Assembly: GCA_040285855.1 (NCBI GenBank)
Contig: JAUFOQ010000003.1
Span: forward strand, 2,356,001-2,420,000
Source: Eukaryota sp. GEM-RC1
Lineage: Eukaryota
Reading direction: 5' to 3'
DNA: 64,000 nucleotides
Below the pieces are notes generated by a model, which was given only the letters and a program-made list of their open reading frames with translations, ran no database searches and was not told the DNA's origin. How positions within the stretch are numbered: the stretch's first letter is position 1; every line of letters starts with the position of its first letter. Below are positions 2,250-50,090 of the stretch, piece after piece. Position numbers and translations under genes: made by a program.

Positions 2250-2860
2250 CAACTTTTAGACATGTAATTAATTGCCCCAATTTTATTCAATTTCGCTCAG
2301 TTCTTCATAATGCTTTCAGAGATGTTACATTTGAAATGTTTAAGGCTCATGGATTTCATGCCAAAGTTGAACCTTATTTAGTAAGTTGGGTCTTGATTTA
2401 ATTAATAATTCTCGTCGAGGTGACTTACATGGTCCTTTTGTTGATTCTAGTCAAATTATCCTTGATGTTCAACAGTCGATCCATGTGCTCAAATTTATGT
2501 TAATGGCTTAAATTCAAAAGGTTTCGATCACCTAGAAACAGCTGAAAAACGTAAAATTGATTTGTATTCCAAAGATGTTGCTAAACGCAATCAAAATTTA
2601 TATTCAAAATTTGTATTTGTTCCATTTGCTATTTCTATTTTTGGTAGTATTGGTGAAATGGCTTCTAAGTTTTTAACTGATTTTGGATCTATGTGTAAGT
2701 CTGAGAATAAGAGATTTAACTTATCATTTTGGCAAAACCGTTTGGCTTTCTCTTTTTTAGCGTTCGGTGCGTAAGTTTTTGAAATCAATTTTCACAAAGT
2801 TGTATAAAAACTGTGGTACTGTTGACCAGGAATTTTCGATGTCTAGTGTTTCATAGCTTT
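2250..2860 (+). mobile_element. CRE-like non-LTR retrotransposon REL-domain remnant
   Basis: HVINC..H, RRGDL, AEKRK..FVPFAISIFG..FWQNRL motifs; near-identical copy at ~47650-47915. Confidence 0.6.
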
Positions 2861-8067: not shown

Positions 8068-8909
8068 GAGTGTTACGAGAAACGTTTCTACGTTTCAGCG
8101 TTTCCACGTTTCCGAAACGTTTTCAATAAACATATCAGTATGGAAACGGCTTGGAAACGTAGAATACGTTTCGGAAACGTAAATTTTGGGTCTGGATTTA
8201 ACTTGTTTTTGTACCAAAGAAACTCATCAACTACTACAGATTGTGATACTGTGTGAGTGAGCACTGACGATAATACCCTTAAACTCAATTTCAAGCCACC
8301 AAGAAGGATATTGCCAATTTCGTCCTGTCGTTGAACTAAATCATCCGATACTTCTTCGTCTTCTTCAACTTCTATGACTAATGATAAATCCTAGAATTTT
8401 CTTTTCATTCGTCTACCGACTTTGACCATCTTTTTTAACGTGGTGTGAGCTGGATTGATTTATTCAATAACATTATTAATTTCTATAAAAATAACATGAC
8501 CACAATGTATCTTTAAAATTTGCAAAGTTGTAATACAACCGTATAACCTTGCACCATCAGGTGTAACAATGTTAAAGATCATTACATCCATCTAATACAA
8601 GGAAACATCCAGTTTGAAGAGGCCGTGCTCACAAGGTAATCAGTGGAGTCTTTTCGTCGGCCACTGGGAGAGAAAAGTGACGAATAGTCGTCGCTGTGTG
8701 CAATCTGAACGATTTCACCTTCATCAATGTCGTTGAGACATACTGCAAAACAGTGAGAGTGTTGATATTTTAGAAATTTTGGAAGAGAGAAATTGGATTT
8801 GGAAGAAATGAGAATTGTTCATATAAAAATGACGTTTTGGAAACGTGGAAACGTGGAAACGTTTCCGAAACGTTTCTAGACAAGTTTTGGTACGTTTCTC
8901 ATAACACTA
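8068..8909. mobile_element. hAT-type MITE
   Basis: TIR (T/G)AGTGTTAYGAGAAACG; 8-bp TSD GAATTGAA (8060-8067 / 8910-8917); subterminal GAAACG repeats. Confidence 0.85.
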
Positions 8910-8933
8910 GAATTGAAGAACTGTGCTTCTGCA

Positions 8934-11900
8934 ATGTCTGAATGTCAAAGTCCTAAAGATACACTCAGCGCCCTCATCCCTGCTTGCTCTCCTTACACAA
9001 AAGCCCCTCCCAGACCACGAATCACTGATAGGTCACCTTGTTTTTCCCCTACAAGACAATCCTCATCTCGCATATCTTCTTCTGTCACTGCTAAAGCACT
9101 CTTTGCGTCTCCTGAGGCTAAGAAAGTGTGCAAAAGACCTGATCCTGGCCCTCTCTCTCCTCAACGTCGGTTCTTCGACTCTATTTCTTTGCCTTCAATA
9201 CCACGACCAGAAACACCTGTCTCATCATCATCACAAGATTCAAAATCTGATGCCACATCACCAAGTGACACTGTCAAACTTGGTAAAAAACGTCGTTTGT
9301 TACTTTCTTGTCCTTCCTTTTCTTCCTTTGACACGTCGTCAACTTCCATTAGTAATGATCTATTACAGTTCACTACTGTTGAGTCTCTAGATTTTCATTG
9401 TATATTTCATGATAATTCTCTGTTTCAAATTCGTGAACTTGAAGGTACTGTCACCATCCAAGCTACTTCCTTCGAATCAGTCCTTCAAAGTGTTTGGAAC
9501 CATGACAGCTTTAAACCAGAACAAAAGGAAACTTTAGAAAGGATTCTCAATAGACAATCTTCAATGTTGTTTCTTCCAACTGGTCATGGTAAAACTCTTC
9601 CCTTACAATTCTTTGCTCTTTGTTCCAGACTTACAGGTCCTGTCATTGTAGTCTCACCATTACTAGCTCTCATCAATGACCAAGTAAAATCCCTTCCAAG
9701 TTGTCTCTTAGGATTAGGTGCTCATAATTACAAAGGAGTATCAGGAAGTGAGGCTTTTGTTAAGAGATTGGCTTTGTCTGATGTTATTTGGATATCACCT
9801 GAAAAGGCTGTTCTACCGTCTTTTAGGGAGGCTTTAATTAAAGCAACGGCATTGCGAAGATTACTTATTAAAGAATTGTGGAGTAATTTGTCAAAGTTTA
9901 TCGAGCAGAATTACCCACAAGAATTCCATCGTTTTTCTTCTTTTCCTGATGTTTCTACTTTGTCTCAACCTGCGTCTTTGTTAGTTATTGACGAAGTTCA
10001 TTGTTTTGGAACCTGGGGTAATAACTTTCGAAGTGATTTTTTAAAAATACCTGATTTTTGGAATTTTCTTGGGAATCCCACAGTCCTTGCACTTTCAGCT
10101 ACTTGTTCCTTTCAAACCAGATCAATTCTACAGTCAAAGTTCTCCATATCGTCCGATGCCATCTCCATGGCTGATAGAAAATCAAACCAAATTCTTTCAG
10201 TTTCTTGTGATAATCAGCAAGAATCAGCACTTCTTCGTCTCTTGACTTCCAAAAGACTTCAAGGGGAAAGTGATTGTCTTTGTGCCACGTCATGAGTTGG
10301 CTCTTGCCTTAAAGGAATCCATTTCTGGAAGTACTTCTCTCAGAGTTAAAGCATATCATTCTGGATTTAGTGGTACTGATAAAATTGCAGCTGAGAACAA
10401 GTTTAGAAATGGGCTTTTGGATGTGTTGGTGGCAACTTCTGCTTTTGGTATGGGTGTTGATATCCAGAATGTTGATCATGTTATACAATATTCAATTCCA
10501 AAATCAGTAGAAGATTTGTTACAGCAAATTGGTAGAGCTGGTCGTGGTGAAGGTCGAATCACATCACGTGCACACGTGTTTTTGAACCCAGATGACGTTA
10601 CCAGATCAGTTTCTTTGCTGTTTGATGATACATACTGTGAGGAGCAAATATTTGACCTCATCACGTGTTTGATTGAGGGAAATGAGAAATTTGATTGTAA
10701 ATGCATTTCTGATGTAGACTCTTTAAGTCTTTGTTCTGATTTGTCAATGGATGCCACCAATTCTGTTTTAACTTTAATGGAAAATTTAAATTTTCTTGAA
10801 TTTTTGGGTTTGGTCTGTGGTAAAATCAAGTTTCAGTTTAAAGATAATTATTACTCAGATTTGACTGAAATCGAGGCCAGTGTTGAAGATCCTTGGGGAC
10901 GTGCTTTAGTCAAACTACTGGACTCAAAAAAACGAAAGTCTCATAATAATTCCGATTTTTATTGTGATTTGAAGGACTTATACTTATCACTTAAGATTCC
11001 AATAGAATCTAAGAATGACGAAACAGAACCTAAGAATCCTGCTAAAAAGCACGAAAAAGCAGCTGAATTTGAGCCTTTCAAGGGATCTTTGGAAGATTTT
11101 CTTGAATTGATTGGGTATTTGGAGGAACGTAAAGTGATTTCAATCCATTCGAGGCCCAATTCTAAACTGTTTCGAGTAAATATGCCTACATTTGACGATT
11201 TGTCTGATGAACATAGCTTTAATGTTGAAGCTGAGAAAAGAAGATGGTCGAAAGCTATTGCATCGGAACTTCGAAGTTCCCGAGATTTGGACATTAAACG
11301 TTTTTGTCTACTTTATGAATATTTAAATTCCTTCAAATATCCTTCAATTGACCAGTTTGATGATTCTCTGTCCCGCAATTCCAATGAGCTACAATCTCTT
11401 TTTAATCGGTATTTTTCGTTGGAAGAACTACCAACATTAGACCAATGCCTATCAAAAATTGATTGCTTCTCCACTAGTGCAACTGAATTGACTCATCCAA
11501 TCAAAAACTTAATCAACTCCCATAAGAGTGATCTCAATATATCTGATTCAATCAATGCGACTGCTTCCCATTTACTTCCACCTGCCAAAGGAGCGATCTC
11601 TTTTGCAAAGATTCTACATGGTCGTCAAACTAGGCTGATTAATCCCCACTATTACAAGAACAACAGTTGCTCTCCTTGGGGAAAGTACTTTAGATACCGT
11701 TTCGATCAGATTGAAGCAACAGCTTTTAATCTTTTGACGGAGTTCGTCACATTGTCTGAACAAAAGAAACAAGAAGCTGCTAGACAAGTTAGAATTACAA
11801 GAAGTAAACATAATGAGAAAATTCAGAAGGAGAGCCAGAAACAATGTGGGAGATTTTCAAAAAGTAAAAGTAAAGAAAAATCAAAGATTCCTCAAGCAAA

Positions 11901-12021
11901 GGCCTTAAGTCAAGGTCAAAAGTCACGTGGTAAGAAGAATAACGAGGAACTAGATCCGAATGACCCTTTGCATTCCCCAGTTAACAATTTTTTTAAAAAA
12001 AGGAGATTATTGATTATTTAA
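8934..12021 (+). CDS. RECQL4: RecQ-family helicase, RECQL4-like (two ORFs joined by a frameshift near 10265)
   Basis: LPTGHGKT, SPLLALINDQ, DEVH, LSAT, ATSAFGMGVD and QQIGRAGR motifs; frameshift near GGGGAAA at ~10263. RecQ4 subfamily call is inferred. Confidence 0.85.
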
Positions 12022-12774
12022 ACTTTGAGCTATTTTTTTGAATCAACTTGTCCTAATGGAATCGTTATTTTCTACTTGATTACTGAGCTGATGACGTGTA
12101 GATGATTGAAGTCTATTGTTTGATGAAGAATGAACGAAACTTGCTATCATTTATGTTACTCAGATATGTACTTATCTTCTATGTGAAATTTAATTCAATT
12201 TAATATCACGTATTAGTATGTCTACTCCACAAATTACTGAATCGTTTTTAATACAACATGCTGCTTAGTTTTTTTCAAATTTTTCGAAGATGGTTTCAGA
12301 AATGATTGCCTGCTACAGTCAGTCTTTCACCATGTAATGTACCACTGATATAATTGCTTTTGCAAAAATTAATAACTAACAGACACTAACTACCAGTACA
12401 GTATCTAACTATGATCCTATATTTTTCCTTTTTCAGCCACTTCAATATCATTATTGATATGTGCTGAGTGATCGGGTGAGAAATCAGTTCCGCACTCGTG
12501 ACAGCCATCAAAAACATTTTTTATTATTCACATAGTATATTTCGAATAAAAGAGCCTTTTTATGCCCTATTTTTAGCTCATACAGTGTATGTATCAATTA
12601 GTCCAATTATTGGTCAAGTTAGTATAAAATACGAATGCAAACAAGAACTCAATATCAGTAACACAACATTGATTACCACTAACTTCCCCAAATTCACGTT
12701 TCTCACTGAAGTATTAAAAGTTAAAGGAGACTCTGAAAAATACCACTACATTGTACTAGTAGGATCTGCAAAAG

Positions 12775-13036
12775 TATAATGTGGCTGTGCATTTTTTCTT
12801 GTATTTTGCTATTTGCTCGATCTAATTCGTCTTGTGCGCATCAGTCACTATAAACAGCTGCAATGCAAAGAGTGGAAATTAATTTTGGAATAACATCTAG
12901 ATTGATCACCAATTGAAAAAACACAACAACTCTCATCACATCCAAACTAATTGCGGAAATAACACATTGAAATTGACCCCAGTATCACAACAGCAACACC
13001 ATTGGTTTTATTTTTCAAATCATATTATTTTAAATC
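12775..13036 (+). repeat. ~260-bp dispersed repeat, inverted copy at 18921-19176
   Basis: Long shared blocks such as CTCGATCTAATTCGTCTTGTGCGCATCAGT and CTATAAACAGCTGCAATGCAAAGAGTGGAAATTAATTTTGGAATAACAT. Confidence 0.9.
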
Positions 13037-18770: not shown

Positions 18771-18920
18771 TGAGATTGAGTCAGTTGAGATGTTGAAAAG
18801 AATTTTATCCAATAGTGAAACGAGCTACAACTTTTGCAAATTCATCAAGGAACTTCAAGGCCAATTTGCCTAATCTACCATATATGGAAATCGCAAATGG
18901 GACAAGTGAATATTCAACAT

Positions 18921-19176
18921 GAATTAAAATAATATGATGTGGATAATAAAACCAATGGTGTTGCTGTTGTGATACTGGGGTCAATTTTAATGTTATTTCC
19001 GCAATTAGTATGGATGTGATGAGAGTTGTTGTGTTTTTCCAATATAGTGATCAATGTTATTCCAAAATTAATTTCCACTCTTTGCATTGCAGCTGTTTAT
19101 AGTTACTGATGCGCACAAGACGAATTAGATCGAGTACATAGCAAAAATACAAGAATATATGCAAAGCCATATTGTA
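18921..19176 (-). repeat. Second copy of the 12775-13036 repeat, abutting the candidate omegaRNA
   Basis: Reverse complement aligns to 12775-13036; similarity stops abruptly at 19176. Confidence 0.9.
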
Positions 19177-19366
19177 GAAATTTTCGGTAGTCCTCAAACT
19201 GTGAAGTTCATTCCAAATGGATAATCCTCCCAAAGTAAATCCTGCTCCCACTTTGGTCATATCCATTTAGGCATCACAGACACGCTATGCTATGAGATGA
19301 TACGGTGAGATTGAGATAGCTTCATACACATAGCGCTGCCCGACCGTTTATGGTGGACTGATTTCT
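19177..19366 (-). ncRNA. Candidate Fanzor omegaRNA scaffold
   Basis: Directly 3' of the Fanzor stop. Nested stems CGCTATG/CATAGCG, CTGTGA/TCACAG, AAATGGATA/TATCCATTT, CCAAAGT/ACTTTGG, with closing AGTCC/GGACT. G-U extensions favour the minus strand. Confidence 0.65.
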
Positions 19367-22300
19367 TCAAGGGAGATCTTCTTCTTTTGACTGCCTTCGT
19401 TGGGGTTCCTCCTTTTCTTTTCTCGATCCAGTTTTAGGTGAACCCTGGTTTGACTCATCTAGCTGTGGACATGTTCGTATGTCGTGACCTGTTTGTCCAC
19501 ATTCTCCACACTCTCTTTCTTTACGAGTCTTTTTCACTGCAGTCTTTTTTCGATCTCTCTTCAAAGTAACATTACCACTCTCGAAATCAGTTGTTAAAGT
19601 TTTTGATCTCTCGAGAATAGATGGCCTAGCTTGACCTTTGATGGCGGCTTCGATAATGGAATAGATATTGATCGAAGAGTTGAGATCTCTATTCCAATAA
19701 GTCTTGCACCTTTTGCATTTCACCAGCCCCCATGGAGCTGACTTTGCTTTTACTTCTACGGACTTCTTTATCTTCTCCCACTCGTCTTCAAAGCTTCTCT
19801 TTTCGGTGGATCCTTACGGTTGTAGACCAGTACTTTTTCCTTGAGTTTCTTCTTCTTCCGTCTTATTTGACGCAGTCCTCTTGGGCCTAAAACTTTGATA
19901 GATGGATCATTTGTACATAATCCAAATAGTCCTTGAGCAGCACACTTTGAACAGGACTTGCTGGTACGGTATTCGTCAACTAGAAATACCTTATACCCGA
20001 ATTTTCTTAAAATTCTTCGGATTTCTGCTCCTCTAATAGCTGGAGTTTTACCTTTTCTTGTGTTTCCCTTAGAGCTCCAGTCCCCGTAACCAAGGACAAG
20101 GTCTTCTGGAGATCCATAGGTTAATTTAAACCTTTCCAACATATTCTTTTCACTCTGTTGATTGTTGGAATAAATTTGAAACTTCCTTTTCGTAAACCAA
20201 TCGTCTTCATAGAAATCACTCAGGTATACACAACTCCGTTCAGCTTCTTTGATGTAAGTCTCGAACTCATCACTGAAACAGGACCTTTGTTGTCCTCTAG
20301 AGACGGCAAGAGCAAATTCGTCGAGGATTTCTTGACCAGAAACAGTTCTACCATTAGAATTTTCGACTGTATAATCTTGGAGCGATCTTTCAGTTTCTGT
20401 TTTCGTAATTTCAAAGAAGGAAGTTTTTAGTTTTCTTCTTTCAGTCAACCGATATTTCTTGCTTTTTCGGTCATAAGATCTCTCCCCAGCACTGTACCTG
20501 AAGCTGGCCAAAAAGTGGTTTGGTTTCAGCCGTACTCGTTGAGATGGGGTTTGTCTCCATTGGTTCAATTGTTTTTTTCTTTTTTTAATACCACCTTTTT
20601 GTTTCAGTCTCATTTCTGAAGGTAGCCGTTTTTTCGTGGGATTGTTGTCCGAACAAGAAAATTCTTCAAATAATATCTCTTCATTTGTTTTTGGAGATAC
20701 GCAAAACATCAAGTCATATTCATTCGGGTCAATGCCAATTATTCTCTTTTCTGTCAGGTTCATTTTTTCAATGTCTTCCGAAGTTAAAGAGTCAATATAT
20801 CTTTCCGAAGCTGTTAGTGGTTTTGCGGTAAAGTCTTCAAAGGTGTTACCGTTTTCGTCCAGTAAATCTTTTCGAATCATAACCAAGGAACAGGAAATGC
20901 CATCTGTTACAATCGAAGAATACTTCAGACCAAATGATCGTGATGATGTAATAGCAGTTTCGGTAAGTACAGAGTCAAATACTTCCTTTCGAATAGCGTT
21001 AGCGGAACCTTTCAAATTTAAAACTCTTTGGTTTATCCAATCAGTATCTAATCTAATATGCTGTGGGACCAACGTCTTGGTCATTGGGAACGGATTATTA
21101 ACCTTTAAGGGTTTTCCATCAATTGAACAAAAAGACTGAATGGTTCTGTTGATATAAACAGCATGAGAAAGAAATTTTAGTGGCTTGGCTTTCTGAGCGT
21201 AGTAAAGATTCTTGCCTTTGGCAATGGTAGGGAACAAACAGAATTTCAAATAGGCAAAAAAGATTAAAGTCAATTCTGATTGCGGGAAGGGGGAAAATGA
21301 TATGATCATCAATTGGAATGTCTTCAAAGTTTCCATTAATAATCAGTTCTCTGATGGAATTTAATTTTGATTTCAATTCCTTCTTTAAGTGTTGCTCTTT
21401 AATTTGTTTAAGACGATAGTTCTTCAACGTAACAATGTTAAAGTAGCGAAAGACATAGTTGTGGAAGTATTTCGCCAAATTGTTAGCGTAATTGGTTTCA
21501 ATTTGTTTAGCCGTATAATGATAAATGCCTGACATAAACTCCAAATTCGGAAAAGAAATGTTGTTAGTTCCAATTTCATGAGACAGAGAGTCAAGAATTG
21601 GATAAAAATTATTACAGTAGTGTAATGCGATTTTTTGTTTCAAAGAATGATCAAATTTTTCATTTTGTAAAACTGCTTCTGCTTCTTTTTTTGACATTTT
21701 CAAATCGGACATACCGCAAGCCTTTTTTTTCTCTACATACATTCGTCGGAGAACGTGCCTTATTGATCCAAGAGCCAAAAAGGACTCAAATCTGGTAAGC
21801 GAACCGAAAAGTCTTTGTAATTATAGCAGATATTCCAATTCTCAGAAGACTCAGAATCATTTCCAATCATGGACAACGAAGGGTCATCGTGCAGTAACAT
21901 CAATTCTCTTTCTTTGACTATTGATTCAGCTTCGATTCTTCCAAAATCTTCAAATTCACGTAGAAGCAAATGCTTCAAGAAGGTGGTTCCTCTCACAGTT
22001 GCTTTTTGATTTCGTTTAGAACAAATTTTAATTAATTGAATGTTTTCATAATCTCTGAAAACCTTATCCAATCCTTTTTTTACGACTTTAATCGGAGGGC
22101 GGTCTAAAACAAGCTGCATTTCTTCATCAAAAAAATAATTCTTCAATTCGGACAACATCTTAATTTTGTTCAGCAAATCTTCAACCAGAGAGTTGCGTTT
22201 TCTATCATCCATCCATAACTTGAAAGTCTTAATATTTTGAGCAAGCAAAGTAAACTCCCTCTCCCGTTCAGGGCTAACCGTTGACATGTTTAGGATTTTT

Positions 22301-23142
22301 TTGAATTGGTTGAAGTAAGTTTTGAATTCAGTTGGTGATAGAATTAAATTTGGTATTGCCTTTTGAAACAATTTGGAACAAACATTTTCTAAACCTCTAC
22401 CACCTTTGAAAACATAAGTTGACTTTACAACATTTCCCATGTCAAGGGAAATAAATGGTCCAAATTCGCTTCGCTTACACCATCTATAGAACCAGATGGG
22501 AATAAAAGGCCTGAATGGCTCATCCACATTAAATGTGGTGGAGATGTTCCAAAGTTTACATCGTGCAATTAAAAACGGGAACAATAATTTTTCAGAGTTA
22601 TAACTTATAAGCAATCTAGGCTTTTTCTCGGACAGTAAAGATATAAGACCATTAATCATGACTTCTTCTGATGGAAAAGTAATTGTTTGAACACCATCAA
22701 AATCACTTGTTTCTTTGGTACTGATGACAACAGTAGAAACGAAATTGGTGTAAATAAATGTGAGGACAATAAGAATGATTTGATCATCCTCCGCATTTGG
22801 TACCAGCTCTGGCCTGGACACTTCAATTTCTTCACTGATTGTTGGAACTTCAGCAGCCTCTTGTTCTTCAGAAACAATTTCTGTTGAAGATTCTGTAGTA
22901 GTGCATTTCGGAAGAGATTTCTTCTTAACATTGAAAAGGAGTGGTGTAAGTCGTTCACTATCGGTAATGACCGTTTTAAAATCAATAAGGCAATACAGTG
23001 GGATGTCATCTACAGAAGACAGGTGAGACTTCTTAAGAGGCGGGGGAAATATAGTGTCACTATGGTTCTGAGAGGATAAACCACAAGGATAAAGTGTATA
23101 CTCCGGGCCGTGAACTACTTCGGAAAGACTGACAGGAGGCAT
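19367..23142 (-). CDS. Fanzor1-type RuvC nuclease fused to an N-terminal PolB-like 3'-5' exonuclease domain and a C-terminal CCHC knuckle (~1260 aa, 3 frameshifts)
   Basis: TDGISCSL, IIGIDPN (RuvC-I, ~20730), GYGDWS, LVDEYRTSKSCSKC (~19970), CKRC..WNRDLNSSINI (RuvC-III, ~19690), CGECGQTGHDIRTC. ORFs 21760-23187, 21119-21778, 19768-21336 and 19367-19723 join by 1-nt shifts. Confidence 0.85.
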
Positions 23143-27504: not shown

Positions 27505-29605
27505 GGTTTTTCCCCAAAAACCACCATAAAATTAACCAAATTTCTTTTCCACCATCACACTTTTTTTTCCACCATCATCTCTTTTACTTCAAACATCATA
27601 TCAGACACTATGCAAATCTCCGTAAGATCGTGCAAGTCCCAACATCCGGTTCGCTTCGTTGTTGGCGAGGTGTTCCCATCAAAAATTGCCTTGCAAGTAA
27701 AGATACATCAACATGCTTTACAAGAGGACAAAGAAATTAGTCTAGCCGCTAATAACAACACAAAAAAGTACACTGTAACGTGTACTGACTTCCAGTGTAG
27801 CTTTCGTCTTTATTCCTCCAGTAAAGATGGCATTAATTGGACAGTTGTCACTTATACTGCCCACAAGAAATTTTGCGCTGGTCAACCTAAAACAAGACTT
27901 CCCCCCAGCGTTATAGCTGAAATCCATACCGACGATTTTAGGAGACAAAAGATTTTGAGTCCTAGCAAGCTTGCCGAAAGCAGCTCAATGCCGTTATCTT
28001 GGAAAAAAGCAGATAGAGTGGTTAAGGCTGTACAATCGAATCTCTATGGTACTCGTGATGCGTCTTATGCAGTACTTCCCATGTATCTTGAAAATTTAAA
28101 GAAATCTATGCCAGGAAGCGTTACTGAATTGATAGCTGATAACTCCACATTTAAGATGTGTTTTGTTGCTCTTGCTGCTAGCATTGAGGGTTGGAACTTT
28201 TGTAAGAAGGTGATTTGTGTAGATGGAACATATATTCGTACACAATACCTTGGTGTTGTGTTGATTGCCACAGCATTAGATGGTAATCAACACACATTTC
28301 CGCTGGCCTATGCAGTTGTGGAAAACGAGACTATTGACTCGTGGTCTTGGTTTCTGACCCAGCTGGCATCCGTGTTACATTTAGAGGATTGTGAAGCTGT
28401 CACAATCATTTCTGATCGTCAAAAGGGGTTATTATCTGCCTTACGAAATGTGTTACCCTATTGTCATCACGCTTACTGTGTTTGGCATCTCGCCGAAAAT
28501 GCTACAGGAAAAGGATCTAAGCATGCTAAACCATTTATTTATCAACTTGCTCGGTCAACAACTATCGAAGAATACAACTGTTTATTTGAAGAACTAAATC
28601 AAGTTTCTCCATCCGCCGCTGACTACATCTCCAGAATTGAGCCGGAATTCTGGGTAGAATGCTTGTTTTCAGGTAACCGACACGGTATGATTACCTCAAA
28701 TCTAGTTGAGAGCATGAACGCGTGCATTGCTGAAGCCAGAGAGCTTCCGGTTACTCATATGTTGGAGGTTATAAGAGAAAAGATTGCAAAGTGGTTTCTC
28801 GCGAGAAGAGAAGAGGGGAAGAAAGCCGAAAATGGGGTTACTGTGGCTGTGGAAAAAAGTTGGTCTCTAGGATGAATGTTGTAATTGAAGAAGAGCTGTA
28901 TGCAACTAAGGTTGACGAAGGATTGTACGAGGTACGATACAAGGGCAAAATGATTAGAGTAAACGTAGGGGAAAGCTTTTGCGACAGCGACTGTCAATGT
29001 GGAAGATGGAAAAGGAAGGTATCCCTTGTGTCCACGCTCTTACTGTTCTTCGTAATTTCGGATCTCGGGGACAAAATTACTGTAGTCAAGAAAACTCCAC
29101 TGAAACCTTCCTGAAGGTCTACCAAGGGAAGGTATTTGGTGTAGATGATGTAAGGAAGAATCACTCTGTGAGACAGATAGAGCCTCCTGTGAACAAACCG
29201 CCTCCAGGACGTCCAGGAAAGGTAAGAGGAAGAAAAGGAGCAAAACCGACTGTTGCTTTCAAACGCTCTACTAATCAGTCAGCGAATGAAGAGTTCCGTG
29301 AAGAAAAAGAACAAAGAAGATGTAGTCTTTGTAGACAAGGTGGACACAACAAAGCAACATGTCCCCAACGTCGGCGTTAGCTCATTGACTGTAGTTGTAG
29401 TTGTAATATCGTATCATAAAGTGGTTTATTTCGTAGAAGATATAGGTAATACTAGTGAGAAGTGAACACAAGTAGGGCGAATATGGCAAGTTTCTTGATT
29501 AACGATTAGATTGAAGTCACGTCAGATGGTGGATTTGGGCGAAGAAAAAAATGATGGTGGAAAAAGAATTTATTGATTTCATATGGTGGATTAGGGCGAT
29601 GTCTC
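27505..29605 (+). mobile_element. Mutator (MULE) DNA transposon, apparently full length
   Basis: Perfect 9-bp TSD TAGAATTTT (27496-27504 / 29606-29614); degenerate TIRs rich in CCACCAT. Confidence 0.9.
27610..29380 (+). CDS. MuDR-type transposase with SWIM finger and CCHC knuckle (frameshifts near 28860 and 28990)
   Basis: VDGTY, LDGN..FPLAYAVVENE, IISDRQKGL, CVWH, TSNLVES; SWIM C.C..IPCVH; GRP; CSLCRQGGHNKATC. Confidence 0.9.
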
Positions 29606-31858: not shown

Positions 31859-34800
31859 ATGCTCTTTAAACTATCACCGTCACATCCCACCAAAAGTGGA
31901 GCAATCTGCAAGTGGAGATGTGACAGTAACATGCTGGCCGTTTCTCTTCCTGGTTCTGTTGCTCTTTGTGATCGTCAAGGGTCTTTTATCTCTTCTATTT
32001 CCACATCCAAGGACACGGCTTCAATTGACTGGGAATGTCATGGTGACTTTCTCTCAGTTGTTGTCCCAAATCAACCAAATGTTATCATTTATGAAACCTC
32101 AACATCTACTCACCTTACTGTACAAACAACAAGACCTATTACGTGTGCTTCTTGGTCCCCCAATTCTTCCCTACTCATCATGGGAACTGATAAGGGTACT
32201 TTTCTTCAATACAATACACAAACAAAGAGACTTAACAAGACCATTGGAACCCATCAAAAGCGCATCTCTTCTTTATCCTGGTCATCTTCCAACTTACTTC
32301 TTGCTTCGTCAGACGATAAAACTGTCTCTGTCACCAAACTTCCCTCCTTTGAGACCAACAGAGACAATGTCGTTCTTCCCTCCCCCTGTACTCAACTCTC
32401 TAGCCTCTCCTACAAGCACAAAGGCCAGATAGTACACCTTGGAGCAGCTCTGTGTAAAGGTGACGTCTATTCTCTTTGATTTGAGTTCGAGTTCTACTGT
32501 TAAAAAGTTGGTTATAGAGGATCTCAGAATTTCTACAATGTTGTTTCTACCTGATCTATTTGCTGTATTTGGAAGTAGTGATGGCCATGTTACTGTAGTT
32601 AAACTAAAACATTCAAACGAGCCTCACGATATGCAACTAGAACATGTTTTACGTCATCATTTACTTCGAACAACTCCAGTACTTTGTTTGGATTACTCCC
32701 TAACCCTCTGTAAGTTAAATGACGGTGTTTTGAGTGACCAAATGGGTCAAATAGCTATAGTTTATGAAGAGACAGTAGAGATCATGTCGACTAATGATTG
32801 GTCTGTGATGCCACCCAATCACATTCAGCTTGTTGAAAGTGAGGGTAGCTTCATAAACGCTACTTGGGCTAAGAATGGTGGAATTCTGACTGTTGCTACT
32901 GTATCAGGTTACGTTTATGGAGAAGTCACGAGAGTTCCCGCTCTAGTGTCGTCATGTGATTCTCTTGTTGCTTGTATGTCGTCACTATCAGCAGTAACTG
33001 TTCTGGATTGCCTCCTGCCACCAGACTTACCCCCAGGGTCACCCCCCGTTACCGTTCTAACTGCTTCTCTTCCTCAAGAACCCGCTCAAATTAGGATAGG
33101 TTTAGGTTCAACTTTGTGTGCTTTTATTAATTCAATGGCCTGGTTTTTAAAAGGACCGTTGATTAATGAGCTACCTGCAAATGAAACAGGAAAGATGGAG
33201 GTTGTGTATAATCGAGAGTACATGACAGTCATTAATGACGTCATGCTCACTACTGATTACGTGGCAGTTACTCTTGGAAATCGAGTTTTGTTACATTCTT
33301 TTGAAGATGATGGATTTGAACAGTGGTTTCCGGTCAATCAATCACAATCAATCACTCAAACTCGACTTTCCAGTGAGTTTTTGGTTTACTCAACTGAAAA
33401 AGGAATACATGTTTTTTCCTTGGTGTTTCGTCAAATGGTTTCAGAAGTACAGCTGCCGTCTCCAGTTATTAACTTCTTTCCTAATCCACAACACTCAAGG
33501 TTTGTCGTGATTGATGGTGACGATCAAGGCTATTTTGTCAATCCAATCACGTCATCAGTCAAGGATATTCCTGATTTTCCTTCTGGATCGACTGCTCTTT
33601 TGACATTTCCGATCCCTCTTTTTTCTCTTTAATTGATTCCTCATTTGTTGCCCACTCCTATGTTTATCTGCAATACTCAGTGGATGGTGAAAAGATTCAT
33701 AAAGTCAAAGATCATACACAGCTTTCTGCCGCCTCAATCCCGCTTACATTAATTAATGGGGAGATTTTCTCCTTTATTCCCTCTTTTGGGCTGTCTTCTC
33801 AGACTCTTTCTTCCCATTCTGCTATTGTTGCTTCTCTTGGTCGACAATCTCAGGGTTTCCTACAACTATTGGAGCTAGGTAGACTTCGAGAAGCTTGGAA
33901 TGTTGCTCTACAATTGCAGGAGCGAAAGTACTATAAGTTGTTACAGGATCGAGCTACCTATTTGCTGGACTTGTCGATTGCTGAGCTGGCATCACGTCAT
34001 CTGGGAGATGCTGCCACGTGTCTAGCTATTAGGTCAGTAGTAGGCACTGAAGATTTCAATGATTTAGCCGCTTTTTCAGCTATTCTCATGTCTGACGTGA
34101 ATAAAGCAATCAAATTGATTGAAAAGGCAAGTAATCGTGATGAACCCCTTCAATTGGCAATTGACCTTCATCAATGGGAACGAGCTCTACAGTTGGCAAG
34201 TTATTCAGATCCAAACAAGATTCCAATTATTTGTTTAAATTTTGCTGTTGAATTAGAATTACAGGAGAAATTTGAAAGAGCTATAACCTACTTTAAAAAA
34301 AGCTCTTGAAGGTTCTGAAATACTTCAAAAAAATCAGATTCAAATGTGTGAAAGTGGAATTATTAAGTGTGAATTAAGAAAAGGAAATGTTGAAGCTGCT
34401 GAAATAGCTTTGAAGTCTTCATCTAAACAATTAGCTAAGGAATGTGCGATAATTCTGAAAGAAATGAAACAATTTAATTTCGCAGCTAAATTATTTAAAA
34501 GAGCTTCTGATTTTGAAGCTGCTGTTCAGTTGTATTTGGAAGTCAATGAAATTCAAGAAGCTGCCAAATTGATTGATGCGGTACACAGTCAAAAGTTATT
34601 GATTGATTTCGGTCACAAAGCAGAGCAATTTGGATTATTTGAAAAATCTGCATCTGCATATCTGCGTGCGGAATCTACTTCTGATTATGTTAGAATTCTT
34701 TTATCTGACCTTGAAGAACCAGAAAAGGCTTTTAAAATTATTCGTAAAACTGCTGATCCTACTGCTGCTGCAATTGCCTGTGAATTCTGTCGAAAAAATG

Positions 34801-35867
34801 ACAATATTGTTACTTTAATTGAAATGTTGTTTATTTGTGGTGAAGCTGATGAAGCTTGTGAACTTGCTTTAACTCATGGTCATGGTCATTTGGCTGCTGA
34901 TTATTATAAGACTCATGGTCATTATCACCGTGCTCTCAAGCTCTATCTTCAATCAAATGCCATTGATGACGCGATCGATGTCGTGGCATCCAGTAATAAT
35001 GACCTTTTGATTAGAACCATCTTTGACTTTTTAATGGGAGACTCTGATGGAAAACCAAAGGATGTCCACCATTTGTTCACTCTTTATGTTAAACTTGGTC
35101 ACTTTAACGAAGCTGCCAAGACTGCTGTGATCATTGCTGGACAAGAAATTGAATCTGGTCATTATTTAGAGGCTAGGAACACATTATTTAAAACTTTAAG
35201 AAAAGTTAAAGGTTTATCTGCTGGCTTTAGACTACCCAACAAACTGCTGTCTATGTTAAAGGTCTTACACTCCTACATTGTTGTTAGAATGTTAGTTAAA
35301 AGAGGGTTACACGAGGAGGCTGTGATTCTACTCGTATCTGTGGTTGAAAGTGATGTGTTCATCCAACATCGTATTTCTATGTTAATTTCTTGTGTAATTG
35401 AATGTCAGAAAGCTGGTCTGAGGGAAAGTGGCTTTAATTATGCGAGTCGATTGATGCAATCAGATTATGTTGATCACGTACCCAGTCAGTATAGGTCAAA
35501 AATAGAAAAGATCATTCGAAAACGTGATAAATCCCAAAAATCGGGAATTCTAGATCGAACTTCCCCTTGTCCTTTCTGTGGTTCAGAAATATCTATTACT
35601 TCATCTTCTTGTTCAAATTGTCGATCTCTGATCCCATTTTGTATAGTTACTGGTCAGAAAGTTGTTAGAAATGATTTAACTTGCTGTCCACACTGTGAGT
35701 TTCCAGCAATTTATTCTCAGCTTGTCGAACATGTTTCTCACTTTCAGTCTTGTCCAATGTGTTTAGAAGAACTAAGTACTGAGACTTTGGAAATTATAGA
35801 TAACGCAGAGGAGTATTTAAATGATTTAACTGATTGGTTTACAGGTTCTACACAGAAGAGTTCTTGA
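31859..35867 (+). CDS. WDR19: Intraflagellar transport protein IFT144/WDR19 (four ORFs, frameshifts near 32470, 33600 and 34300)
   Basis: N-terminal WD40 repeats (GTHQKRI), TPR-like solenoid, FLMGDSDGKPKD, LHSY, IECQKAGLR and C-terminal CPFC..C..C..IPFCIVTG..CP.C.FPA..CPMC. Confidence 0.9.
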
Positions 35868-40810: not shown

Positions 40811-42995
40811 TGTTGCCGTAAGGTCAACGTTGATAACAAAGAAGAGTTTATTGTACAGAGAAATCCTTAAGACTAAGTGACACGTCATCAGATGTGAAGA
40901 TATCTACTAGGTATCGCTATCTTCACTAACACTACTCCTTCTCAGCCTTTTTATAGGGTTTGTATAACAGCTATTGTCAAATGTATGTGTAGGTTCATCT
41001 ACGATGATGCAGTTGATGGATTCCACTTTGGCTGTATATGAGCATTCATTGGCTTTGTGGCCAGGTCTATGGCATTTAAAGCAACTGTCGCGTTTTCTGT
41101 CATTGGAACGCTGTTGGTTGCGAGATTCCACGGCTGGAAGAGAGTCGAGCACAGAACTGTCTTTCTTTAACCGCGAGAAAACTCGTGAAAGATCAAGAAG
41201 TTCATCAGAAGCAACAGAAATAACTTCAGGGAGAGAAGTTATGAGTTCATCGTTAATACGCGAAATCAATGAACCGGACAGACCTTTGGGACGAATCCCT
41301 CTGGCAAAACGCTTGACCAGAACCTTGTCTGGTAAGCTGAGAGATTCAGCTCGATCACGAATTCTCACAAACCTGCGCAGATACTCGTTCATCTGCTCAC
41401 TAGGTTCACAAATTCGTACATCCATACGCAACCCAGAAATCGTCTGGTTGAACTCCTCGTAAGTGGAGAATTGTACCTGGCAGTGATGCGAACAAATTAA
41501 TTTAAATTAAATTATTAATTCTACAGGCCAACAATTAATTCTAATTCTAATTCTACACGCCAACAATTAATTAATTTTAATTCTTCAGACCAACAATTAA
41601 TTAATTGCAATTAATTACAATTAATTCTGTATTACCATACGACAAAAATCAACATACTATCATTCTGAATCGACATCTATAACAAGCTCGGCCGAATTTA
41701 ATCCTGTTGTCTGATGAGGGTTCTTACTCACAATTGATTTGACTAAATCCAAGTTCCAAGAATCAGTGTTGTATAAAAGAAACAATTGTTTCTCTAACGT
41801 TTTTGATTGTAAACGTCCTCTCAGCTGCCCTATAATTAGATAAGTAAGAAGAAATACCAAGAGTTAATTTTGGACGACTGAATAGTCTTTCCACCTAGTT
41901 AGAAGTTGATGGAATAAATGATAAGTCTAAGTATTCCGAAGCAGTGTTTTTGGAATAGTATCGACGTTATCAAGCTTTTCGTTGAAGCTCTTGACAAGAT
42001 GAGCATTGTTTTCATTTTCATTTTCAGTAGGTGGAATTCTTTTCAGTTTACTGACTGATGCCTTTTCTGCACCAGTGAGTTCTCTCTCATATCCTTCAAG
42101 TATCTTGATTACTCCATTTTCAAAGTCGGGGGACTCAAAGATCGGTGATGCCGGGCTATAACATGTGTAAGATCGCATAGCTGGATATTCCTCATGTAGA
42201 ACGTCAAACATTCTCTTGGCCTTGTGAAGAGGAACTTCTGAAACTTGCAACTTCTTTGTAATTGTGTTCAGCTGGTCAAATTTTGAAGTCATTTCATCAA
42301 TCATTTCTGTTTACATTCGGTCAGGCAGATGTTGTTTCACTTCAATCGGGCTGTGGTTCAACAAAGGTAAAAAAGAACAAGGCTATCTCTTTGGGAGTTG
42401 GAGAAGACGACATAAGGTGAAGAAATGGGAATTATAAAATTAATTTTACTAGTAGTAATTGCCGTTTATTAATTATAATTCTAAGGTGTAACAATTAATT
42501 AATTATAATTTTAAGCGGCTAGAATTAATTAATTATAATTTTAAGCGGCTAGAATTAATTAATTCTCAGGGAATTAATTCAATTAATTTTTTCGCATCAC
42601 TGGTACCTGCCGTTTGAGATACTCAAGGAGAGCCTCATCAGAAGCTTCAAGGTCAGGCTCGGAGAATGGAGCGACCTGAGCAAAACCGGACCCAGCATAA
42701 GCCGGAGGGTTACCTGATGCTTCTTGTCTGTAATAGACATATACACATCAACTTCCTCGAGGAAGGTTTGAATCTCGTTCCTTGTGAAGGTTGCAAGCTT
42801 TGGCGGGACAAAGAAAGCAAGATCACGGAACTTTCTGGGGTTAGTAGATGAGACAGTCATAGGCCAATAATTATTGTTGTCGTAAGGTCAACGTTGATAA
42901 GAAAGAAGAGTTTATTGTACAGAGAAATCCTTAAGACTAAGTGACACGTCATCAGATGTGAAGATATCTACTAGGTATCGCTATCTTCACTAACA
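40811..42995 (-). mobile_element. Non-autonomous gag-only LTR retroelement with 121-bp LTRs
   Basis: LTRs at 40811-40931 and 42875-42995 (TGTT..AACA, 2 mismatches seen); 4-bp TSD AATG; PPT GAGAAGGAGTAG; gag with CFKCHRPGHKANEC; no pol. Confidence 0.9.
41481..42602 (-). mobile_element. Internally deleted hAT element inserted in the gag gene
   Basis: TIR CAGTGATGCGAA; TSD GTACCTGG/GTACCTGC; transposase C-terminal remnant (IPSTSN.VERLFS, LEKQLFL); AATTAATT subterminal repeats. Confidence 0.85.
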
Positions 42996-43441: not shown

Positions 43442-46223
43442 CTACATTAGAAGTAAGTGCATTCCCATAATATCTTCAAGAGAGAGATTTCCTGGTCGAA
43501 CATCCAAACCAACAGGTTTTTCAGTTTCACCGCGAAGTCCTGTGCTGGTGTATGTAGTAACTTCCATTATTCCTTCTTCAGTTATGGAATACTGTACAGA
43601 AATTGTAATAGAACCAGCAGGTGCAGGAGACAAAGGACCAACAGTCAAATCGCAAAGTACTTCCCCCAACCCTTCAGTAAGAGCTTGTTGTTCGACTTTT
43701 GCAAAAATATCGACAGAGCTACCCCCAGCTACTGCAATGGCACTGTTCAAATTCACAGCTTGTTTGGCAAGTGCAACAGAATCAATATCATCAACTCTAT
43801 TCTGGGTTAACCAGTAGAGATAGTTCAATTGATCTTTGAGGCTGGGATTTTGATTAGAACACCACTCATAAATCGTGGCTGGTTTGTTTTGACACGTTCG
43901 ATATCGTTCATGATTATACAACAGATTAATACAACACTTGAGTGTGGCCTTTGCCCAAGTTCGAACATCTGCATTAACCAACGTTTCATCTTGATCATTG
44001 GAAGACATCAATGCTAAATTCCAGTGTTTAAAGACTTTGATTAAATCGTCCAAAGTAACTGTACCAGCAGCATCAACAATAAATTTTCGGGTGTTTTCAT
44101 CAATTGTGGTACTCCCTTTCGGATCATCGACAATGAGATAGTTCTCAGCAAACATACTGACAGAAGATCGTTGAGTATTCCAAGGAAGTAATCTAGGCTT
44201 AAGGGGGATAAACTTGTCAGGAAGAACAACTACAGTTCGAGGTGTATAAACTCTGTCGAATATGTGATCAAGCTGATTATTAATTTCACTGTCACTATGA
44301 GCTTGGAACAATGGTGGTACCAACAAAGAGCCTTCCTCACCACGAAGAGCACTGCGGAATGTGAAACACACATGTGTGGGAAAATCAGAACCAATACCGA
44401 GAGTAGTGACTTCGAACTTGGCATTGATCGTTTTGAGTTTATCGTAGACTAACTGTGTTTGTCGAGAGAATTGGTTTTTAAAATCATCATTGATCACATC
44501 CATACCATCAGAGACGAGTAATACTCGATATATAATGGTGTGATTCATACCAGAATTTGATGCATAATCATCATGAATAAAATCTGCAGTTTAGTTTAAG
44601 GCTTTAATGATATCAGCTCTGCCTGACGAAGATGAATTTCGCAGATCTGATAAGGATTTGGTTGTAGAAACTAAATGGTTGAACAGTACAGCACCAGAAA
44701 ATGTTGAATTGTCACCTAAAGAGGAAAGCTTCGAATATAATCGTTCAGTCAAAGTAGAAAAATGGCCTCTCATCGAAGAAGAACGATCAATAACTAGAAC
44801 GTAACGGTATTTTACCTTCATACACAACTGTGTAAGGGCAACATCAGAAACACGAACAATCATTTTAGGTTTTTCAGGAAGATGAGTACATTGGATTACA
44901 CTTACAACAGCATTTTGTTGTCCATCAATGGTGGTCTTAAAAGTCTTGCGGATAGAACATTCTTTTAAGGGAGTACCTTTTTCTAGGACCATTTCCAGAC
45001 CATCATGTACAGGTGTCACAATTGATGATCCAAGAACGTCATGAAGAATGATGTCTGTACCTGATTTGCTAGCCAAAATGGCTGCTCCCAAAGCAACAGC
45101 TTCATCACAGTTAGGTCTTTTTAGTAGATCAACGCCAGGGAAAACAGACGATAAGCGCTCAGCGATACCAGGTAGTAGAGTAGAGCCACCAACAAGAAGA
45201 ATGTTGTCAACGCTTTGTGGAGAGATTCTATTCAACTCAAGAAATTGATTCAAGTTTTGGAAAACCCTGTCGGAGAAAGGAGCACATATAGTTCGAAGCT
45301 CTTGTTGAGTTAAAGTAAGTTGAGAATTGAGAAACGAGAAGGAATGTTGAGGGACTTGTGATAAGTAGCATTTAGCTTCTTCCACTACTTGTCTCAGACA
45401 TTCAAGGTCGGATTTCTCCAACCCATGTCCGACACGAGTCTTGAAATAGTCAACGAGAAGTCTGTCAACAACAGAGCCACCCAATGTACGATCACCTCCT
45501 GTATGAATGACCTGAACTTCACGTGAAGTAAGATGGGCAAGGCATAAATCAAACGTCCCTCCTCCTAAGGTGAGTATTCTACAAAAACATACCTAAATCA
45601 AAAATGAGGACCCTTTTTCCTACCAATGATGGGTGATAATACAGAAACGCAACTGCTGCGGCCGTTGGTTCACACACGAGTCTTGGGTTTTCAAATCCTG
45701 CAATGATGGCCGCATCTTTGGTAGCCTTGCGTTGTCTCTCGTCAAATTCATAAGGAATGGTGATATACACAGACGGAAATGACTGTTGTCCGGTGGCTTT
45801 AGCAGCCACAGATTGGAGCTTCTGCAATATAACAGCTGATATGAATTCAGGAGTGTAGTGAGTGTTTTCGCCATCCTTGTCTATCATAATGGAAAGTCTA
45901 TTCTGAGCGTCTAAATCGATTTCATATGGAAGATCTCTTAATTCACGGGCAAGGTTGTTGTCTTCCATCAGATTCCTTCTTAGATCGGATGGGTTGGACG
46001 AGATGTCTAGATGACGGCCAATAACGCGTTTAACCTGTGTAACAACATTTTTAGGGTACTTTCTTGCATCTCTCAAAGCTGGCTTGCCACATTTGGGTTT
46101 GGAAGAGTGGAAACTTACGACAGACGGAACAACCTTATTTGACCTGTCGCAAACGATTATTAGCCCATTATCATCACAAATAGCGACCAATGAGTTGGTT
46201 GTTCCGAGATCGATTCCGATCAT
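43442..46223 (-). CDS. Hsp70-like protein with a vWA domain inserted in the SBD; 28-nt intron 45565-45592; in-frame TAA at 44591-44593 (possible pseudogene)
   Basis: GIDLGTTNS, EPTAAA, FDLG|GGTFD after splicing, LVGGST, DEAVALGAA; vWA VIDRSSSM, LVSDG, LGIG; SBD tail LSPAPAG..ISVQYSITEEGIMEV. Confidence 0.8.
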
Positions 46224-47649: not shown

Positions 47650-50090
47650 ATTTTAAGGCTCATGGATTTCATGCCAAAGTTGAACCTTAATTTAGTATGT
47701 TGGGTCCTTTTTAATTAATAATTCTCGTCGAGGTGACATATATGGTCCTTTTGTTGATTCTAGGCAAATTATCCTTGATGTTACAACAGTACATCCATGT
47801 GCTCAAACTTATGTTGATGGTTTAAATTCAAAAGGTTTCATTCGTCTAGAAACAGCCAAAAACGTAAAATTGATTTGTATTCCAAAGATGTTGCTAAACT
47901 CAATCAAAATTTATAGGGATAAAATTTTTTCCCCAAAATGATCCAAAATGTTACCAGATCCCCTTCAATAATTTCAATTTATCAATTTGGAAATATTTGT
48001 GAAAATTGTGAAAGAAAAAACATCTACTGTAGGAGATTTGATCTTAGATTTTGGAAAAATCGAATTGTGTTTGCTATCGTTAAAGGTATGGTGACTTCTA
48101 TATCTAGCGCTTTATTATCTCTGGGCAGACATTATGAGGACAAGGTAGGTGAGAATTTCCAGATAAGGAATCTGGACTTTGAGGATATTGATCGGGATCG
48201 GAAAAATATATTGCAATATATTTCTAACATAAAAAATCTACAATAAATATATTGGGATACTGCTCTTTGAGGGATATCTTGTCTTCTCGGATTCTCAGGT
48301 CGTTGTTGCTCGGATAACAACTGTTTCAGTTTAGGGATCAATAAGCCCTTCTGGATGGAGGAAAGACTCTCAATGTTGTTCCAAAAAAACATCAGTTCAA
48401 AAGAGGTATCAAGAGGGGGATCTTGAGCAATTGGAGGATCTAACACAGCAATAGATGGCTCTGGGTCCAATTGCCATTGAGGATGGAAATTGTTGACAGA
48501 AAGCTGCTCATCAGCAGCGAGGAGTGATTGGATCTGTGTAGCAAGCGGAAGTCCTTTTGCAGTAGGAATCAAAACCTTAGGAATCAAAAGGAGCAAAACC
48601 TTGTTCAAAAGCCCATCGTCTGAGTGTTTGCTCTAGATCGTCTCGAGTGTCAAACTCGTAAAAAGGTGGCTTTGTAATTCGAGGATCACGTAACTTGTCA
48701 ATTTCCCTTCTCATAAATAATTTCAATTAAGCACAATTTTGTTGGTAACAAAGACTCTTCACTTCCTTCTCATTGTTTCACTTCTACTTCTTTTGGTGGT
48801 ATTGGTTTCACGAAAGCTAAGTGATGGTGCCTTTTGGGGCCTTTAAGAATTTTTTGTTATCCTGTGTTATGGAAAACGAAAGATTTTTTACTTCACTCAT
48901 CTTGTACATGGTTAATTAGTCTTCAAACTTTAATTGATAGTCTTGACTCCAATTTGTGGTTAGAGTTATTTCCTGTTGGGGTAACAGAAATTCAGCAGAG
49001 AAGCATTTTCTCTTTGCCTTTGTGTGTTCGCAAGTTACAGAAGAAGTTTGTTTTGTTTCACGAAAGCTTGGACTTTAAAAACCGTATTAGCTTGGCTAAG
49101 ACTAAGAGTCCCGCTTTTGGTGCTTTTTTGAATCATATTTCTTCAAGCGCTGCGTATTCATTTGTTTCTCGTTTGCCAAGAAAATTTTGTTTTAATCTTA
49201 AGGATCATGAATGGCTTATAAACATGAGACTTAGGTTAGGTTTATGGCCTTCAGGTCTTTTGAAGCATTCTCCATGTCTTTGTGGTCGTTCAAAGGCTTC
49301 AAATTTTCATCATTTAGTTAACTGTCATCAATTTATTATTTTAGATCAATTATTCACAACAGTATCCGTGATACATGTTTGGATATGTTTAAGGCTAATG
49401 GTTTTCATGGACAAATTGAACCTTTACTTGCTAATCTTTCTGATCAGCCAAAAGTTGATAGAAGTCGTGGTGATTTGATTGGTCCTTGGTTATCTTGTCA
49501 GGAAATTATCATGGATTTCACAACTGTTGATCCTTGTAATTCAAGATCAATTTCCAAAATTTTTGATGATGATTTTTCTGCTCTTGAAGTGGCTGAAAAA
49601 GGAAAAAATACAAAGTACTGTCACTTAACTAAGAAATTGAATGTTGACAGGTACAATTCTTTTGTGTTTCAACCTTTGCGATGTCGATATACGGTAATAT
49701 TGGACGAGCTGCACAAGGTTTTTTAACTTCCTTTGGTAAATTGTATTCTGAGTACAGTAAAGTTTTCAATGAAAATTTTTGGTTGAGCAGGTTAACGTTT
49801 GCGTTGTTTCGTTCAATGCCAGATATTTTAATTCAATTTTAGGTAAGTTGTTCGGTGATGGACAGAAGGATCATAGTTTAGATACTTTAGTTAGTGCCTG
49901 TTAGTTATTAACTTCTACAAATGCATTTGTTTCACTGACTGATCATAAACCCCGTTTTTTTATTTAGCACAATATTTTTCCATTATATATTTTTCACCCA
50001 ATCAACAGGGGGTTTTTAGCATTAGATTTAGCAAGTTTTTGTTGGAATCATTACAGACAACAATAGACATAACACAGCCTAAAGAATCGT
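47650..50090 (+). mobile_element. Mosaic of CRE-like non-LTR fragments (RT thumb, Zn knuckle, REL)
   Basis: FGGIGF, CLCG..HLVNC, RGDL..DFTTVDP..AEKGK..KY. Pieces match 330-540, 870-990 and 2340-2600 in mixed orientation. Confidence 0.65.

Follow-up and report, generated by a model that had tools for sequence, protein, structure and literature searches.

The closest described systems to the locus reported here are the Fanzor1 (Fz1) proteins SpuFz1, PpFz1 and GtFz1, whose omegaRNAs are encoded 3' of the Fanzor1 gene (PMC10432273; PMC11423790; PDB 8gkh, 9cer, 9cf0). These omegaRNAs have a short first hairpin followed by longer, variable stems, and the solved ones have a total length of 75 to 150 nt (PMC11423790 section 5). 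The reRNAs of TnpB and Fanzor2 systems such as ISDra2 and ISXfa1 are likewise encoded at the right end of their elements and carry a terminal pseudoknot (10.1101/2023.08.09.552727), whereas none is present in the omegaRNA of SpuFz1 (PMC10432273; 10.1101/2023.08.09.552727). Restorative homing was demonstrated with TnpB and has been put forward for OMEGA systems at large (PMC13565253).

Here we analyzed a stretch of 64 kb (the window) in which a 190-nt interval at positions 19177 to 19366, read on the minus strand, follows a Fanzor gene. We consider it probable that this interval encodes the omegaRNA scaffold of the upstream Fanzor1 protein, with a three-stem fold, a guide taken from the flank and a part in homing, because the gene is a Fanzor1 gene, the interval lies 3' of it, the stems are stacked and the first hairpin resembles SL1, the initial stem-loop in known Fz1 RNAs. 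An earlier note on this DNA had proposed a candidate omegaRNA here; its position, three stacked stems and SL1-like first hairpin speak for that proposal, and the pseudoknot, the single fold and the fixed end that came with it are not supported. Taken alone, such a candidate omegaRNA is ordinary and to be expected behind a Fanzor gene, and here it would complete a system with an unusual protein. Coordinates of the features are collected in Table 1.

Table 1. Positions of the protein-coding, RNA and flanking features, numbered from the first letter of the 64-kb window
Feature	Position	Strand	Detail or basis
Family-B DNA polymerase 3'-5' exonuclease-like domain (~residues 45-340)	22123..23142	-	Pfam, Foldseek, motif alignment
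Fanzor1 part (from ~residue 350)	19367..22095	-	Pieces 21760-22095, 21119-21778, 19768-21336, 19367-19783
RuvC triad codons	D 20730-20728, E 19974-19972, D 19687-19685	-	Motifs read in translation
C-terminal zinc knuckle	19510-19469	-	Motif read in translation
Three frame breaks	21781-21777, 21293-21289, 19803-19800 (within 19800..21781)	-	Each in a homopolymer run
Candidate SL1	19338..19363	-	TCA 19361-19359, 6 pairs and one bulge, 8-nt loop ending CG; descriptor scan
Stem A	19282..19337	-	Core 19335-19329/19289-19283, pair probability 0.97; 26-nt loop
Stem B	19199..19279	-	Nested helices 19279-19274/19204-19199, 19270-19260/19223-19213, 19256-19247/19239-19230
Right-end zone	19175..19198	-	Candidate ends 19199 (last stem), 19188 (TA closing long-range helix), 19175 (TA at repeat start)
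Dispersed repeat, ~260 bp	18921..19176	-	90% identical to 12775-13036 (+)

A Fanzor1 gene with an exonuclease-like N terminus

Upstream of the interval lies a Fanzor1 gene whose RuvC triad is intact. GtFz1, SpuFz1 and PpFz1 match its product in phmmer at E values of 4e-14 to 2e-11 and are the only solved relatives found by sequence, and a predicted model of P0034, a sister protein, finds Fz1 structures at E values of 2e-19 to 1e-16. The RuvC D-E-D motifs are present as GIDP, LVDEYRTS followed by CxxC, and WNRD; a RuvC glutamate just ahead of the zinc finger is a Fanzor1 feature (PMC13565253). The gene starts 1.4 kb farther upstream than the earlier note had it, and the added part is an exonuclease-like head. 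If the window frame were whole, the full-length protein would have ~1260 aa (P0034 has 1182 aa), about twice the 600 to 700 aa of most Fz1 proteins; the difference comes from the exonuclease-like domain at the N terminus and a tail with a zinc knuckle.

The reading frame of the window copy is interrupted three times (Table 1). Sister proteins differ in these breaks, the first being closed in two of four, the second cleanly in three of six and the third in two of six. Given this variation, and since the assemblies of named relatives are R9.4 nanopore assemblies corrected with short reads (10.1101/2023.05.03.539051), the homopolymer breaks are likely long-read errors left in multi-copy DNA; the three in the window copy may also be real decay. 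A 32-nt intron bridging the third break would be less parsimonious: P0034, P0037 and P0007 read through colinearly. The interval had been described as lying immediately downstream of the stop codon, and a TGA is indeed found at 19369-19367, but that stop depends on a frame broken three times upstream. As the frames read, the first hairpin would become part of the coding frame with one more homopolymer indel near 19422-19410; among 167 candidates, no longer protein with the C-terminal tail was found.

The window protein belongs to a 90% cluster of 13 members, two of them from the window and 11 of them named proteins of Eukaryota sp. GEM-RC1, an isolate called Skoliomonas sp. GEMRC and described as a free-living metamonad (10.1101/2023.05.03.539051). 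Because the 11 named copies lie on contigs of six different sizes and their gene numbers are at least 58 apart, they are probably separate loci. Recent spread is implied by no fewer than 11 further named copies with 90% identity or more, and a paralog family (P0002-P0004) is 57 to 60% identical to the window family. The gene numbers of P0014 and P0069, proteins of two different Fanzor families, are neighbors in one named assembly, which suggests one element beside or inside another.

The N-terminal domain matches Pfam DNA_pol_B_exo1 (E 1.6e-9), and its best Foldseek matches are family-B polymerases at E values of ~1e-7, from a low-confidence model (mean pLDDT 48) of which the core alone is confident. 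Like the DEDDy exonuclease of family-B polymerases in both Pfam and fold matches, it differs from those enzymes in being followed by Fanzor1 rather than by a polymerase domain. In P0034 a single frame runs from the start of what appeared as a separate 'PolB-like' frame (23142) through the Fanzor part, and exonuclease and Fanzor share one frame in eight relatives (P0034, P0044, P0061, P0064, P0068, P0069, P0070 and P0072; the TNB score is below the Pfam cut-off in P0034, P0069 and P0072). A search with the N-terminal domain across 1.84 billion representatives returned 14 matches, of which the 10 best originate without exception from three named isolates of protists and the remaining four are three ordinary polymerases and one spurious match. 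The nine rows of this lineage all fall on one side of a branch with an SH-aLRT value of 98 in a quick preliminary tree of 36 rows, whose long branches carried warnings, and this lends weak support to a single origin of the exonuclease-Fanzor lineage.

Motifs ExoI, ExoII and ExoIII are intact by pattern in seven TZLM3-RCL proteins (P0044, P0061, P0063, P0064 and P0068-P0070) and by eye in P0072. The set expected of an active DEDDy enzyme (ExoI DxE, ExoII NxxxFD, ExoIII YxxxD) is degenerate in the window family, in which other residues stand in place of the glutamate of ExoI and the aspartate of ExoII, and neither motif alignment nor pattern search finds ExoIII. The exonuclease domain of the window family is thus likely a catalytically dead remnant. 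An N-terminal 2A-like motif, which we take to be a ribosome-skip motif in these related families, is found in P0042, P0046, P0059, P0044, P0061, P0064 and P0067-P0070, and a Ulp1 protease domain precedes the exonuclease in P0042 and P0059; no 2A-like motif occurs in the 64-kb window.

We could find no earlier description of an exonuclease-Fanzor fusion, which appears to be more novel than the candidate RNA. Neither a natural fusion of this kind nor any Fanzor in metamonads was found in the open-access articles and literature listings searched. Term searches found none of 'exonuclease', 'fused' and 'fusion' in PMC3627910 and PMC10432273 and no 'exonuclease' in PMC10530073, where fusion terms concern constructs only, and the DnaQ-like domains mentioned in PMC6338049 belong to LTR elements rather than to Fanzor.

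Fold of the 3' interval

Structural signal in the 190-nt interval is local, and that of the whole interval is borderline. Against shuffled sequences, the comparison by which the earlier note had wished its candidate to be judged, the minus strand of 19177-19366 does better than most but only marginally: its minimum free energy (MFE) is -52.3 kcal/mol, equaled by 11 of 200 shuffles (z -1.68) and by 33 of 500 in a second set, with z across sets between -1.6 and -1.7. The plus strand scores z -0.77 (43 of 200 shuffles equally good), and a longer segment, 19480-19188, is not unusual (z -0.65). Stem A and stem B sub-regions, which were picked only once the fold was known, stand out more clearly. 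Stem A reaches z -2.4 on the minus strand, with 10 of 500 shuffles equally good compared with 140 of 500 on the plus strand, and stem B was equaled by none of 500 shuffles on either strand (z -3.4 minus, -3.6 plus). Over the 64 kb, 3652 windows of 70 nt were scanned with 12 shuffles each on a grid that takes stem B as its anchor; the window of stem B comes 5th and that of stem A 266th. Hairpins at 59526-59630, 62081-62150 and 8811-8915 (+) have z values below that of stem B in the same scan; among them, the hairpin near 59560 is almost a perfect palindrome.

Several G-U pairs had been taken as a sign of an RNA rather than a DNA palindrome. G-U pairs make up 9 of the 54 MFE pairs. Stem A is specific to the minus strand; stem B folds on both strands and therefore cannot separate RNA from DNA, and with DNA folding parameters the two strands are alike (-22.0 versus -22.7). 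The strand neutrality of stem B and of the DNA folds is what gives some weight to the reading that the stems are a cis signal and not a guide RNA, either as a structured 3' UTR in the element's mRNA or as a subterminal hairpin in DNA that a transposase or a reverse transcriptase supplied in trans would recognize, as does the combination of an element without a transposase and a window that holds MULE, LTR and non-LTR-like remnants. We nevertheless think this unlikely: stem A is specific to the sense strand, an SL1-like motif follows the stop, a Fanzor with an intact RuvC needs a guide RNA, and the stretch 19700-19101 offers no better SL1 candidate. Signaling in cis and guiding are, moreover, compatible roles.

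All 14 motifs that the earlier note had named were found on the minus strand where it had put them; the helices that it had joined in one structure, however, belong to two mutually exclusive folds. The long-range AGTCC/GGACT helix (19359-19355/19193-19189) has a pair probability of 0.72 to 0.78 and excludes the local first hairpin (19358-19338, ~0.22). The fold with the long-range helix is the one at -52.3, and the fold with the local first hairpin, stem A and full stem B reaches -50.3, so that the SL1-like hairpin is a minor conformer (0.22) when the RNA runs to 19177. An RNA ending at 19197 would change this balance, since in 19363-19197 the MFE structure and the centroid alike consist of SL1, stem A and stem B (z -2.38, with 4 of 200 shuffles as good). 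The outer helix of stem B (19279-19274/19204-19199) is weak, at ~0.23, and competes with the base of stem A for 19279-19278. As for the proposed CGGT/ACCG pseudoknot, three of its four nucleotides are already engaged in local pairs with a probability of 0.85 to 0.94, and any 4-mer is expected ~0.7 times per 190 nt; the folding tools model no pseudoknots, and this judgment comes from local-helix competition and chance expectation. A 4-bp pseudoknot is thus unsupported here, unlike the terminal pseudoknot of TnpB and Fanzor2 reRNAs, and the protein is a Fanzor1.

An 11-nt string at 19278-19268 (-) also appears, by eye, in the omegaRNA of GtFz1 (PMC11423790 Table S3), at a similar distance from the first hairpin but with different pairing in the two RNAs; the match may be a coincidence.

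The first stem-loop in related Fanzor1 loci

Viral and metagenome scans yielded 93 related loci (80 kept of 317, plus 13), all of them distant Fanzor1 loci with no close relative of the window element among them. A C-terminus could be located in 79, of which 65 are distinct. Of the 65, 54 fit the descriptor 'TC, 6-7 bp stem, loop ending CG', and with L062 dropped as an off-position match, TCA with a 7-bp stem and a loop ending in CG is present in 53. Across 35 distinct SL1 hairpins, 98.8% of 245 cells are paired, a figure that is partly circular because pairing was the selection rule, and both sides have changed in 132. This conserved hairpin agrees with the 7-bp SL1 of the solved Fz1 RNAs (PMC11423790 sections 4, 5 and Table S3) and with the C6-G20 pair in the SpuFz1 omegaRNA (PMC10432273 section 10). 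The compact signature in L001-L083, 91 to 177 nt past the WNRD codons, comprises TCA, the 7-bp stem, a 6- to 7-nt loop ending in CG, a linker rich in A and a stem that closes the scaffold at a terminal TA.

The hairpin that lies 5 nt past the stop in the window resembles this conserved SL1, but imperfectly. By eye, the SpuFz1 and PpFz1 RNAs show the same succession of UC, 7-bp stem and loop ending in CG (PMC11423790 Table S3), and the viral and metagenome loci share TCA, stem and loop ending in CG at the scaffold 5' end; the candidate has 6 pairs and a bulge rather than 7 pairs, and no A-rich linker. It is the only descriptor site within 19700-19101; over 128 kb, the relaxed descriptor, loosened to admit the bulge and 8-nt loop after the candidate was known, finds nine sites, or ~0.04 expected per 600 nt. 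The candidate scaffold, at 165 to 189 nt, is longer than the solved Fz1 RNAs and than the related scaffolds (105 to 141 nt, n = 42), which are A+T-rich, carry the A-rich linker and place their final stem at most 2 nt from the element end, at the terminal TA, in 31 of 42. The proteins of the related loci are 24 to 39% identical to that of the window, and their measured frames do not exceed 698 aa.

The earlier note had called for covariation across genomic copies; two covariance models built from these distant loci both miss 19177-19366. Model R1 (SL1), made from the 35 hairpins, places the hairpin correctly in 8 of 19 held-out loci; with model R2 (full scaffold), 7 of 15 held-out loci are found at E values of 7e-5 or better. 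R1 gave 18 matches at E values up to 10 and R2 gave seven, none of them on the candidate. In blastn, the 3' regions of the related loci gave a single 11-mer match, at chance level, and no second copy of the candidate RNA was found within the 64-kb window.

These misses, together with the borderline z of the whole interval, are also what would be seen if the fold were mostly chance or a dispensable insertion, and the functional omegaRNA were shorter or began inside the frame. In 50 of the 53 related loci SL1 falls within the reading frame, and the distal part of stem 2 can be dispensed with in SpuFz1 (PMC10432273 section 10). Such an arrangement seems improbable to us, as no other SL1-like site exists in the 3' 600 nt, stem B stands near the top of the window scan, and the single homopolymer indel considered above would itself put the hairpin in-frame. 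An unrelated, known noncoding RNA gene abutting the Fanzor gene by chance can be dismissed almost entirely: the G+C content of the interval (0.43) slightly exceeds that of the gene body (0.37 to 0.38) but nearly equals that of the gene's last piece (0.42), nothing in Rfam reached a gathering score (the best E value, 0.47, fell outside the interval in the kilobase searched), and ARAGORN detected no tRNA or tmRNA.

Element ends, proposed mechanism and surroundings

The fixed end at 19177 given in the earlier note is unsupported; three right ends come into question (19199, 19188 or 19175). A dispersed repeat begins at 19176, so the right end should lie no farther out than ~19175; when the repeat match was carried 20 nt farther, into the candidate, 99 of 300 random controls scored no worse. 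Under the pattern in which the last stem borders the element end and guide, an end at 19199 or 19188 would fit and one at 19175 would not. Unlike the solved Fz1 elements, this one has no recognizable terminal inverted repeats: searches for these, for target site duplications and for an empty site gave nothing above chance, the left end was not located, and a 9-mer common to 23881 and 19209 is at chance level. No transposase was found inside the element. CTRR is the 3'-end motif of Helitrons, and by eye it is missing at the candidate ends; Replitron-like direct ends (PMC10288648) can be set aside as well, with no direct repeat above chance.

At the other copy of the dispersed repeat, a long hairpin (12720-12810, +) spans the point at which the Fanzor element meets the repeat (19176), which faintly suggests that the element interrupted or truncated the repeat. 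A 15-mer at 38284-38270 (-), inside an unannotated frame, has one mismatch to the sequence from 19176 and could possibly be an off-site target, if the guide starts at 19176, or chance.

The steps that we infer for the window element (transcription, RNA binding, the three-stem conformer, guide position and homing) are based on the processing of scaffold and flank guide in studied Fz1 systems (PMC10432273 section 7; 10.1101/2023.08.09.552727). The 3' segment would be transcribed and then trimmed to the scaffold plus ~15 nt of flank, the scaffold consisting of the short first hairpin and two long stems and the guide of the next ~15 nt beyond the right end of the element. Loaded on Fanzor1, the omegaRNA would direct a cut at the empty insertion site, the repair of which would likely copy the element back in, a homing that we propose by analogy with TnpB and OMEGA systems. 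Where the exonuclease motifs are intact, 3' DNA ends might be trimmed at the cut, and the break would then not simply be re-ligated. The exonuclease could instead shorten the guide at its 3' end; we favor trimming of DNA ends because family-B exonucleases act on DNA.

Taken as a whole, the picture that these steps would add up to is a speculative one that we advance with considerable doubt: a lineage-restricted class of Fanzor1 naturally joined to a proofreading exonuclease of family B, in certain families behind a 2A-like peptide and Ulp1, with the longest Fanzor1 omegaRNA so far (~180 to 200 nt with guide), spreading without a transposase of its own by cut-and-repair homing and end trimming. 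Exonuclease fusions have been built by hand by genome engineers. End trimming, whether of the break or of the guide 3' end, bears on what Fanzors do for their elements, and the intact and degenerate exonuclease versions in sister lineages are a built-in control on it.

Other mobile sequences in the window include a MULE transposase at 27610-28875 (+) and pieces of LTR retrotransposons (gag, integrase and RNase H) at 40907-41431, 50578-51678 and 52662-53387 (-), whose proteins are possible helpers in trans for the Fanzor element. Degenerate remnants at 18830-18925 (-), 2339-2720 (+) and 47652-47915 (+) have translations that resemble the C-terminal endonuclease region of non-LTR retrotransposons. 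Host genes at 8913-12021, 31859-35867 and 44591-46223 (helicase, WDR19-like and Hsp70-like) are also split into adjacent frames, by either introns or indels.
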